Positions 49,956-50,620 of a stretch of DNA of 64,000 nt are shown in pieces. Numbering within the stretch: position 1 is the stretch's first letter; every line of letters begins with the position of its first letter. The notes beneath the pieces are model-generated. The model ran no database searches. It worked only from the letters and a program-made list of their open reading frames with translations, and was not told the DNA's origin. The position numbers were made by a program, and so were the translations under genes. The DNA is taken from the NCBI RefSeq assembly GCF_003334765.1, contig NZ_QOWT01000017.1. The stretch is one strand, 5' to 3'. This DNA comes from Escherichia coli (GTDB lineage: Bacteria > Pseudomonadota > Gammaproteobacteria > Enterobacterales > Enterobacteriaceae).

Positions 49956-50171
49956 AGGTGTATTGCTCAATCTTCGAACGGGGGGAGGATTGTAGCAGAA
50001 TCGCATTTGAATGTGACCGCGTGTAAGCCGCTAACCGGTTGGCTGCGGATGTTTAAATCAGAGAGAGAAGACCGAAATCGGAGTTCATCGTGAATCCATT
50101 AGACTTAGAAAATATCGGGTCGTAACGTTGTGTTATTACTTTTTCAGAGTTTACTAAGGAGAGGTTTACTC

Positions 50172-50620
50172 GTGGCGATTAATTTCAGCCCTAAGGTTGG
50201 TGAAATACTGGAATGCAACTTTGGTAACTATCCTGTTAGCCAAAATGGACCGTTCAGCACGACGTATTACGATGGCCGCATTCCTCCTGAAATGATAAAA
50301 AACAGGTTAGTTGTCGTGCTCAACGGAAAAATTAATGGCAACGCATGCATCGTCGTTCCATTATCAACCACTCGCGACCAGACAAGTTAAAACGTGGAAT
50401 GCATGTTGAAATAGCCAGTAATGTTATCAATGACCTGCAATTCTTTGATCAGCAGATTCGTTGGGCCAAAGCCGACCTGGTACAACAAGTCAGTCGAAAC
50501 AGATTAAACAGAGCAAGGACTTACAGAGGGTATCTTAATCAATGTTTGCCACATGAGTTGGTTGCAGACATACAGAGGGCGGTCATCAAGTCAATCAATG
50601 CCATATCGCTCATAAATTGA
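50172..50620 (+). pseudogene. yifN: MazF/PemK-like toxin gene interrupted by a frameshift
   Basis: GTG 50172 preceded by a TAAGGAGAG Shine-Dalgarno; frame A (to the TAA at 50388-50390) has the N-terminal MazF-like motifs GEILECNFG, RLVVVLN, CIVVPLSTT; frame B (through 50620) continues with MazF-like HVEIASNV...WAKADLVQQVSRNRL...ELVADIQRAVIKSINA; join near 50375-50395. Confidence 0.7.

Follow-up and report, generated by a model that had tools for sequence, protein, structure and literature searches.

Is the MazF-like gene yifN of Escherichia coli really alone? The gene lies between rep and ppiC in the stretch of DNA analyzed here, 64,000 nucleotides (nt) of contig NZ_QOWT01000017.1 that are referred to below as the window, and its reading frame is split in two. 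To our knowledge, every characterized toxin of the MazF/PemK family is neutralized by a protein antitoxin, and MazF-like genes that seem "solitary" tend to be written off as orphans or remnants. The original prediction, made from the DNA sequence and a list of its open reading frames (ORFs), likewise described yifN as an orphan without an antitoxin. That description stood insofar as no antitoxin ORF was found at any locus, but it missed a conserved small RNA (sRNA) gene (50617-50726) that lies just outside the span it had considered. We conclude that yifN and this sRNA very probably constitute a functional protein-RNA module, and we lean towards reading the locus in the window as a disarmed MazF-like toxin with a surviving RNA partner.

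A recent single-base deletion splits yifN

The gene order in the window is like that of K-12 (gppA, rep on the reverse strand, yifN, ppiC, and ilvC on the reverse strand). The start codon of rep ends at 49955, which leaves a spacer of 216 bp before yifN whose sole ORF, as predicted, starts with GTG and has 12 codons counting the stop (50090-50125). A Shine-Dalgarno sequence, also predicted, is present (AAGGAGAGG, 50156-50164). The first yifN frame runs from a GTG at 50172 to a TAA at 50388-50390 and has an additional in-frame GTG upstream at 50130; the second is open from 50345 to a TGA at 50618-50620 and lies one base behind the first, so that −1 is the right direction for a shift that would join them. 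Alignment with intact E. coli alleles placed the lesion inside the interval originally proposed for the frame switch (50375-50395). A single T is missing, the window reading GACCA-GACAAG where intact alleles read GACCATGACAAG, which corresponds to the intact codons CGC GAC CAT GAC AAG (R D H D K, within TTRDHDKLKRG). The alignment proposed in the original prediction, which was to look for an intact form of about 150 amino acids (aa) and the separating indel, thus yielded an uninterrupted gene of 149 codons in other E. coli strains (WP_000996692 in strain 10671 and WP_000996704 in an O100:H21 strain), and the missing T is the sole difference of consequence between the window and such alleles. 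The identification as yifN matches the RefSeq annotation of K-12 MG1655, in which the gene is a pseudogene labeled "type II toxin-antitoxin system PemK/MazF family toxin" and "frameshifted."

The ratio of nonsynonymous to synonymous divergence (dN/dS) among intact alleles was 0.05 to 0.09, with values of 0.035 to 0.13 across both halves of the gene (0.035 to 0.07 in the C-terminal half), and K-12 yifN with the T restored is the consensus intact allele. This combination of purifying selection and identity to the consensus indicates that the lesion is recent. We regard it as virtually certain that positions 50172 to 50620 are yifN in the form of an ordinary, recent pseudogene created by a single-base deletion, and this was the default that the original prediction had adopted.

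The state of the gene was then counted among 5426 complete E. coli genomes. The yifN locus was present in 4016 of them and was full length in approximately 70% of these (about 2800 genomes, from an evenly spaced sample in which 20 of 30 matches were full length). This sample was used in place of the exact count of intact alleles (1089 genomes), which is an underestimate because nearby single-nucleotide polymorphisms break the 28-base seed. The deletion allele, identified by an exact 40-mer across the deletion, was present in 1228 genomes, and independent lesions have inactivated yifN in other lineages, namely, IS1 insertions inside the gene, other frameshifts, and a stop codon. In the 1410 genomes without yifN, about a quarter, the whole 777-bp cassette is absent; the spacer between rep and ppiC measures 86 bp in a Nissle-derived strain versus 863 bp in the window. 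The original prediction had allowed that all orthologs might share the two-frame layout. This layout is not conserved, as the gene is a single frame in most E. coli genomes with the locus and in all other genera with an unbroken copy.

Two side observations concern the gene itself. The synonymous divergence between two intact E. coli alleles (L002 versus L003) is 0.19, which seems high for E. coli and points to long-standing allelic lineages or to acquisition by recombination. An N-terminal extension (MLLLFQSLLRRGLL, 50130-50171) begins at the GTG located 14 codons 5' of the yifN start; in Superficieibacter it is closed by a TAA and so is not conserved.

A small RNA gene begins at the yifN stop codon

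An sRNA of about 75 nt is encoded directly downstream of yifN (Table 1). The −35 element of its promoter overlaps the yifN stop codon; the promoter agrees with the sigma-70 consensus at 11 of 12 positions, and no better promoter-like site lies in the region. The covariance model R1, derived from seven of the homologous RNAs, had its sole match in the 64-kb window at the sRNA, with a score of 91.3 bits and an E value of 7.5e-21, and the E. coli sequence has a folding energy of −27.8 kcal/mol (z score, −2.67). Covariation was counted on a model-guided alignment of 39 distinct sequences, in which 93.4% of cells were paired; compensatory changes were present in 8 of the 11 terminator pairs, although such counts are flattered because the alignment leans towards the model. 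A search of Rfam with permissive thresholds returned no match at the sRNA, either in the window (49500-51300) or at four homologous loci, and no tandem repeats were found between 49950 and 50830, where the sRNA is present as a single copy. The sRNA terminator must also end the yifN transcript, so that the RNA is carried on the yifN mRNA as well.

An RNA at this place has been observed before. Using transcriptome sequencing, transcription-start mapping, and a northern blot, Romero et al. (2014, Mol Microbiol 94:963, PMC4681348) reported an sRNA "downstream of yifN on the same strand" in K-12 MG1655 whose abundance varied with the growth medium; no function was proposed and no link to yifN was drawn. 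We equate it with the RNA at 50652-50726 on the basis of position and strand. As the northern blot was performed in K-12, the RNA is made in a lineage whose yifN is broken.

Several other features of the sRNA sequence were considered and set aside. A resemblance of GAGGGACCUGCG to helix 45 of 16S ribosomal RNA was dropped, as this segment is the lowest part of the terminator stem and varies freely among distant homologs. An 11-nt likeness between GCCCTAAGGTT in yifN codons 6 to 9 (S-P-K-V, 50188-50198) and GCCCTAAGTTT in the sRNA (50665-50675) would matter if YifN recognized a motif in both RNAs, but it is probably due to chance since it is not kept in other genera. A 32-codon ORF beginning with TTG (50683-50781) runs from inside the sRNA through the terminator; it was treated as noncoding because its downstream part is not conserved in Superficieibacter.

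The RNA gene accompanies yifN across genomes

The 220 nt that follow the gene were compared among yifN homologs. In almost every locus, the stop codon is followed by a conserved noncoding element consisting of a −35 box of the form TTGAC(N) at or just past the stop codon, a 17-nt spacer, and a −10 box of the GATAAT/TATAAT type; 6 to 7 bases past the −10 box, the motif (G/A)U(A/U)GCCC..GAGGC is followed by a C-rich stretch and a long terminator hairpin. The arrangement TTGAC-17-xATAAT at a fixed distance before the RNA was found in 27 of 32 homologous loci from different genera. The covariance model gave one match per homologous locus, on chromosomes and plasmids, directly beside yifN, and none in a cassette-free B2 locus. 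The four most divergent copies (L042, L043, L044, and L046) gave weak matches (E values of 0.01 to 0.35) at the expected position, and one Herbaspirillum locus (L049) contains two copies of the RNA in tandem. No intact gene of the YifN clade lacking an adjacent RNA was found among the genes examined. The pairing spans Enterobacterales, Pseudomonas, Xanthomonas, Legionellaceae, and Betaproteobacteria.

The position of the RNA relative to the gene is not fixed. In Shewanella it lies on the opposite strand, convergent with yifN, and in Massilia and Herbaspirillum it is located about 800 nt upstream, also on the opposite strand. That adjacency is kept without cotranscription argues against the element being merely a 3' untranslated region or a terminator. 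Within E. coli, the promoter-plus-RNA segment occurs in exactly the same 4016 genomes as yifN, always with at least 80% coverage. Only two single-base indels, both in loops, separate the RNAs of E. coli and Superficieibacter, where the synonymous divergence of yifN is saturated at 1.7 to 1.9; judged by this comparison, the RNA is conserved far beyond neutral expectation.

Metagenome contigs scanned with an RNA-derived pattern gave 42 matches, on 11 of which the covariance model was run. In 36 cases the match lay 36 to 87 nt 3' of a yifN homolog on the same strand, and all five of these that were run passed the model; the other six had no yifN nearby, and all six failed the model and are therefore taken as chance matches. 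Of the 36 metagenomic yifN copies, 15 are broken beside an intact RNA, and three frameshifted copies of the Pseudomonas type were among the matches. The same combination of a broken yifN and a retained RNA occurs with the K-12 deletion and three other E. coli lesions, in Rahnella (stop codon plus frameshift), and in Haemophilus (frameshift). A scan of viral contigs with the RNA pattern found nothing.

Related pairs exist outside the YifN clade. Alphaproteobacteria and Planctomycetes have a sister subfamily (about 140 aa, about 30% identity) that is likewise solitary; downstream of its gene lie a promoter, a longer RNA sharing the motif GGGCYUUAAGAC, and a terminator. In Vibrio phage-like elements, a homolog with 27% identity neighbors a LexA-like repressor, and an RNA of this kind lies downstream of it. 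The presence of an RNA beside both indicates that the protein-RNA pairing is old. As a detail of the Vibrio copies, two records (L112 and L113) are Vibrio phage 10N.239.311 "PE001," 13-kb elements of the Vinavirales type from Vibrio cyclitrophicus, in which the YifN relative is situated at one end; positions ~926 to 1070 of L113 hold a promoter, GTTCCCGC...CTAAGAC, and a terminator, which is the RNA type of the alphaproteobacterial sister subfamily.

YifN is predicted to have a MazF-type fold

The repaired 149-aa YifN matched the Pfam family PemK_toxin (PF02452) with an E value of 2.4e-10 over residues 38 to 141 (model positions 15 to 108 of 109), and the only other Pfam match, to IMS, was weak and nonsignificant (E value of 0.071). 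The AlphaFold model of the repaired protein (predicted local distance difference test, 78.8; predicted template modeling [TM] score, 0.74) is a MazF/Kid-type beta-barrel with a C-terminal helix. The top 50 Foldseek matches in the PDB were all MazF-type toxins, with a probability of 1.0 and TM scores (target) of 0.62 to 0.78. Together with the sequence, the Pfam match and the fold uphold the earlier description of a MazF/PemK-like frame split over two frames between rep and ppiC. YifN is approximately 35 residues longer than toxins of the MazF/PemK family, chiefly through a poorly modeled loop insertion after the first strand (residues ~18 to 40). Among 30 homologs, 17 positions are invariant, including R45 and S65, which by eye stand in the MazF-like motifs KNRLVVVL and VVPLSTT, respectively. 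The catalytic residues are R29 and T52 in E. coli MazF and R25 and T48 in Bacillus subtilis MazF; R45 and S65 would be the active-site Arg and Ser of YifN, matching this Arg/Thr pair.

Neither NCBIfam nor PADLOC returned a useful match to the repaired protein. There is a match of the family to PHROG 15698, which is annotated without a function. A sequence search of the PDB returned a single match, DarA, which was discarded as its E value (0.17) is at chance level.

Homologs are mobile and lack a protein antitoxin gene

Homologs of about 150 aa with 42 to 83% identity, often labeled "YifN (PemK superfamily)," occur in hosts that include Klebsiella, Superficieibacter, Serratia, Photorhabdus, Xenorhabdus, Pantoea, Pseudomonas, Aeromonas, Shewanella, Xanthomonas, and Roseateles. 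The clade is narrow, comprising 31, 120, and 510 representative clusters at E values of ≤1e-30, ≤1e-10, and ≤1e-3, respectively, of 1.84 billion, and 133 plasmid records contain a homolog. In Superficieibacter, yifN is located between rep and ppiC as in E. coli, within 3.2 kb of collinear sequence (identities between the two of 92.5% for Rep, 93.5% for PpiC, and 83% for YifN). Elsewhere the setting changes. The Serratia gene is flanked by genes for a MetQ-like lipoprotein and a MerR-family protein, the Xanthomonas gene adjoins RadC, and yifN stands alone in E. coli hemolysin plasmids. Pseudomonas copies lie among blocks of small genes on islands and plasmids, together with genes for an N-6 methylase and an integrase, for example, in the IncP-7 plasmid pCAR1.

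Protein neighbors were compared by all-against-all BLAST of ORFs of at least 35 aa within 1.5 kb of yifN at 38 loci, and no conserved protein neighbor was found beyond genus-level synteny among close relatives. At several loci there is no same-strand ORF of at least 30 aa within 200 bp on either side of yifN. The sequence upstream of yifN is not conserved between genera, so that the rep-yifN spacer contains no conserved antitoxin ORF. There is no protein antitoxin ORF at the locus in the window or at the 38 homologous loci.

Some homologous loci have unusual structures. The pCAR1 copy (L068, 79041-93487) is part of a block of about 20 small hypothetical genes that all point the same way, accompanied by an N-6 DNA methylase, a GNAT acetyltransferase, a Ser/Thr phosphatase, and an integrase, and the block resembles accessory or anti-defense regions of conjugative elements. 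In Amphritea, Pseudidiomarina, and a Pseudomonadales metagenome-assembled genome (L056, L058, and L061), a YifN-like domain forms the C-terminal half of a protein of about 295 aa whose N-terminal ~150 residues are unrelated, so that the family also has a fused form. In Massilia (L047) and Herbaspirillum (L049), the homolog is extended to about 213 aa, and an ORF of 176 to 191 aa ends 11 to 19 nt 5' of it; these loci are a rearranged version of the module.

Comparison with known toxin-antitoxin systems

YifN shares PF02452 and the predicted MazF fold with the type II toxins of the MazF/PemK family (Kid, ChpB, and EndoA). Like them, it is small and is encoded on chromosomes as well as on plasmids and islands; its invariant Arg and Ser may correspond to their catalytic Arg and Thr. 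It differs in that an adjacent, cotranscribed protein antitoxin gene of the MazE/PemI type was found upstream neither in the window nor at the 38 loci, and in that the longer YifN proteins form a narrow, distinct clade paired with an sRNA gene. In the latter respect the locus is closer to the type III systems (ToxIN, CptIN, and TenpIN), in which a protein with a nuclease-type fold adjoins a noncoding RNA gene and there is no protein antitoxin. As in those systems, the RNA gene is co-conserved with the adjacent toxin gene, the pair is mobile with a patchy distribution, and one terminator serves both the toxin mRNA and the RNA. In contrast, the yifN RNA is a single copy of ~75 nt rather than a tandem repeat array, it lies downstream with its own strong promoter rather than upstream behind a leaky terminator, and YifN belongs to the PemK family and not to the ToxN/AbiQ, CptN, or TenpN families. 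The pair would be type III in its logic, but it is not type III in its architecture or toxin family. A gene for an sRNA with its own promoter also adjoins the toxin gene in type I systems that have a separate RNA (tisB/istR-1, shoB/ohsC, and zor/orz), but there the toxins are small membrane peptides and the RNA pairs with the mRNA, whereas YifN is a 149-aa protein with a MazF fold and no complementarity beyond chance was found.

Proposed mechanism and alternative explanations

We hypothesize that intact YifN is an endoribonuclease toxin resembling MazF, as its fold suggests, and that the sRNA neutralizes YifN by binding it directly, as in type III systems; its strong promoter would supply it in excess, and the toxin transcript would carry it as well. 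The conserved single-stranded 5' tail or the C-rich loop could serve as an uncleavable pseudosubstrate. K-12 would then retain a disarmed toxin together with an antitoxin RNA that is still expressed. The repeated breakage of yifN beside an intact RNA points to a relationship of toxin and antidote. That the sRNA acts as a protein-binding antitoxin is a proposal we take seriously while stopping just short of favoring it. More tentatively, the pair may represent a new kind of toxin-antitoxin module, in which a toxin with a MazF fold is held in check by an adjacent, single-copy sRNA with its own promoter. The carriers of the pair are plasmids (IncP-7 pCAR1 and E. coli hemolysin plasmids), genomic islands, phage-like elements, and enterobacterial chromosomes.

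A number of points weigh against this interpretation. A profile alignment (hhalign) of YifN with B. subtilis MazF was weak (probability, 0.56), covered only residues 58 to 136, left R45 unaligned, and paired T48 with T67 rather than with S65. A literature search conducted mostly without subscription journals found no paper on toxicity or nuclease activity of YifN. Covariation in the middle hairpin of the RNA was modest, with compensatory changes in 3 of 7 pairs of the same model-guided and hence flattering alignment, and a plain MAFFT alignment analyzed with RNAalifold yielded only the terminator and a 3-bp GCC/GGC stem incompatible with this hairpin; the two structures thus compete for the 5' half of the sRNA, in which the hairpin is modestly supported. 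The RNA, being single copy, downstream, and under its own promoter, is unlike that of every described type III system. It could also have a function of its own, with which its retention beside broken yifN genes would be equally consistent. Finally, the pairing of yifN with the RNA may already have been published.

Of the alternatives, the main rival to a toxin and its antidote is that YifN does not arrest growth but forms a ribonucleoprotein with another role, such as a dedicated processing or guide-like pair, a phage defense effector, or an anti-defense factor that mobile elements carry. The tight linkage of protein and RNA would suit any functional partnership. Also in favor of this explanation are the occurrence of homologs near N-6 DNA methylase, RadC, and integrase genes in plasmid and island blocks of small genes, or beside a LexA-like repressor in the Vibrio phage-like elements, and the match of the family to PHROG 15698. 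We nonetheless consider this explanation unlikely, as the fold and the Pfam family are those of MazF-type RNase toxins, the repeated independent inactivation of yifN with retention of the RNA is the one-sided decay that a toxin and its antidote would be expected to show, and PADLOC gave no match. The sRNA might instead regulate yifN in the manner of type I systems, by base pairing with the mRNA and masking its Shine-Dalgarno sequence or start codon, and the conserved C/U-rich loop UUUUCUCCCC is of a kind able to pair with purine-rich ribosome-binding sites such as AAGGAGAGG. At 20 loci, though, duplex energies against the yifN initiation region were no better than those for shuffled targets (z scores of −1.4 to +2.5, mostly near 0, from a crude test, as duplexfold allows long loops), and no interaction site recurred. 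Without complementarity beyond that of shuffled sequences, an antisense mechanism is not supported, and since the sRNA is on the yifN strand in most loci, it is not cis-antisense either; we regard this explanation as improbable.

That yifN is no more than a decaying orphan pseudogene, with a terminator or an unrelated transcript as its neighbor, would agree with the broken and so annotated K-12 gene and with the lack of the cassette in about a quarter of E. coli. It is made highly improbable by the strong purifying selection on intact alleles, by the conserved promoter of the RNA itself, and by the conservation of the RNA beyond neutral expectation and its persistence beside yifN from E. coli to Xanthomonas and Roseateles despite changes of side and orientation. 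The original prediction had also raised a rescue of the split frame by −1 slippage, and programmed frameshifting or transcriptional slippage would allow K-12 to make full-length YifN. The shift has the right direction, neither half has decayed, and a Ribo-RET preprint reported initiation signals at the annotated yifN start, where the gene is thus translated, and at the upstream in-frame start. Yet the productive overlap CAGACAAGTTAA (50378-50390) contains no slippery heptamer of the form X XXY YYZ, in agreement with the earlier remark that the junction is not a classical one, and there is no homopolymer run at the deletion site or in the overlap at 50381-50390. As the single-frame allele is the common and the ancestral form, as other lineages inactivate yifN by unrelated lesions, and as the youth of the lesion explains the absence of decay, a −1 rescue is not supported, and we think this explanation scarcely credible. 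We return, then, to a disarmed toxin with its RNA partner as the reading that best accommodates the locus.

Features of the locus

The coordinates of the features are collected in Table 1. A 20-bp palindrome (GCCGCTAACCGGTTGGCTGC, 50027-50046) in the spacer between rep and yifN could be an operator for either gene. Upstream of ppiC, two 17-nt direct repeats, TCCCTGACTGACAATTA (50740-50756) and TCGCCGCCTGACAATTA (50784-50800), lie 44 bp apart, each overlapping a weak promoter-like site (CTGACA-18-GATCAT). In some E. coli strains (EC261, an O100:H21 strain), about 44 bp between them are missing, as if deleted by recombination between the two repeats.

Table 1. Features of the yifN locus, with positions in the window
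Feature	Position	Strand	Description or basis
yifN-plus-RNA cassette, approximate extent	50000-50802	.	Carried or lacked as one unit by E. coli strains
rep-yifN spacer (216 bp)	49956-50171	+	Putative yifN promoter, 12-codon GTG ORF, upstream GTG at 50130, Shine-Dalgarno sequence AAGGAGAGG
yifN N-terminal frame	50172-50390	+	Native codons 1-69, then out of register into TAA at 50388-50390
Lesion, one T missing	between 50380 and 50381	+	Alignment with intact E. coli alleles
yifN C-terminal frame	50381-50620	+	Native codons ~71-149; TGA at 50618-50620
sRNA promoter	50617-50645	+	−35 TTGACA at 50617-50622, 17-nt spacer, −10 GATAAT at 50640-50645
Small noncoding RNA, ~75 nt	50652-50726	+	Covariance model R1, promoter, terminator
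sRNA 5' tail, conserved, 11 nt, free	50652-50662	+	GUAGCCCAUAG
sRNA hairpin with C-rich loop	50663-50693	+	E. coli fold
sRNA terminator hairpin and U-rich tail	50694-50721 (hairpin)	+	E. coli fold

Implications

Parts of this picture were already known, as yifN is annotated as a pseudogene and the sRNA had been seen earlier, without a name or a function. We found no paper linking yifN with the sRNA or a MazF-family toxin with an RNA partner, although this is weak evidence, as subscription journals were mostly outside the search. The K-12 pseudogene is of little interest by itself; its context is what matters, namely, a whole clade of solitary MazF-like genes paired with a conserved, independently transcribed sRNA that is not in Rfam. 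E. coli offers a natural test set for the relationship, with a broken toxin and the RNA in K-12, both intact in O157:H7 and many other strains, and neither in Nissle and its relatives. Should the RNA be the antidote, the MazF family would join the toxins known to have RNA antitoxins, the E. coli sRNA seen on a northern blot in 2014 would gain a function, and searches for antitoxins that are limited to ORFs would be missing a class of systems.

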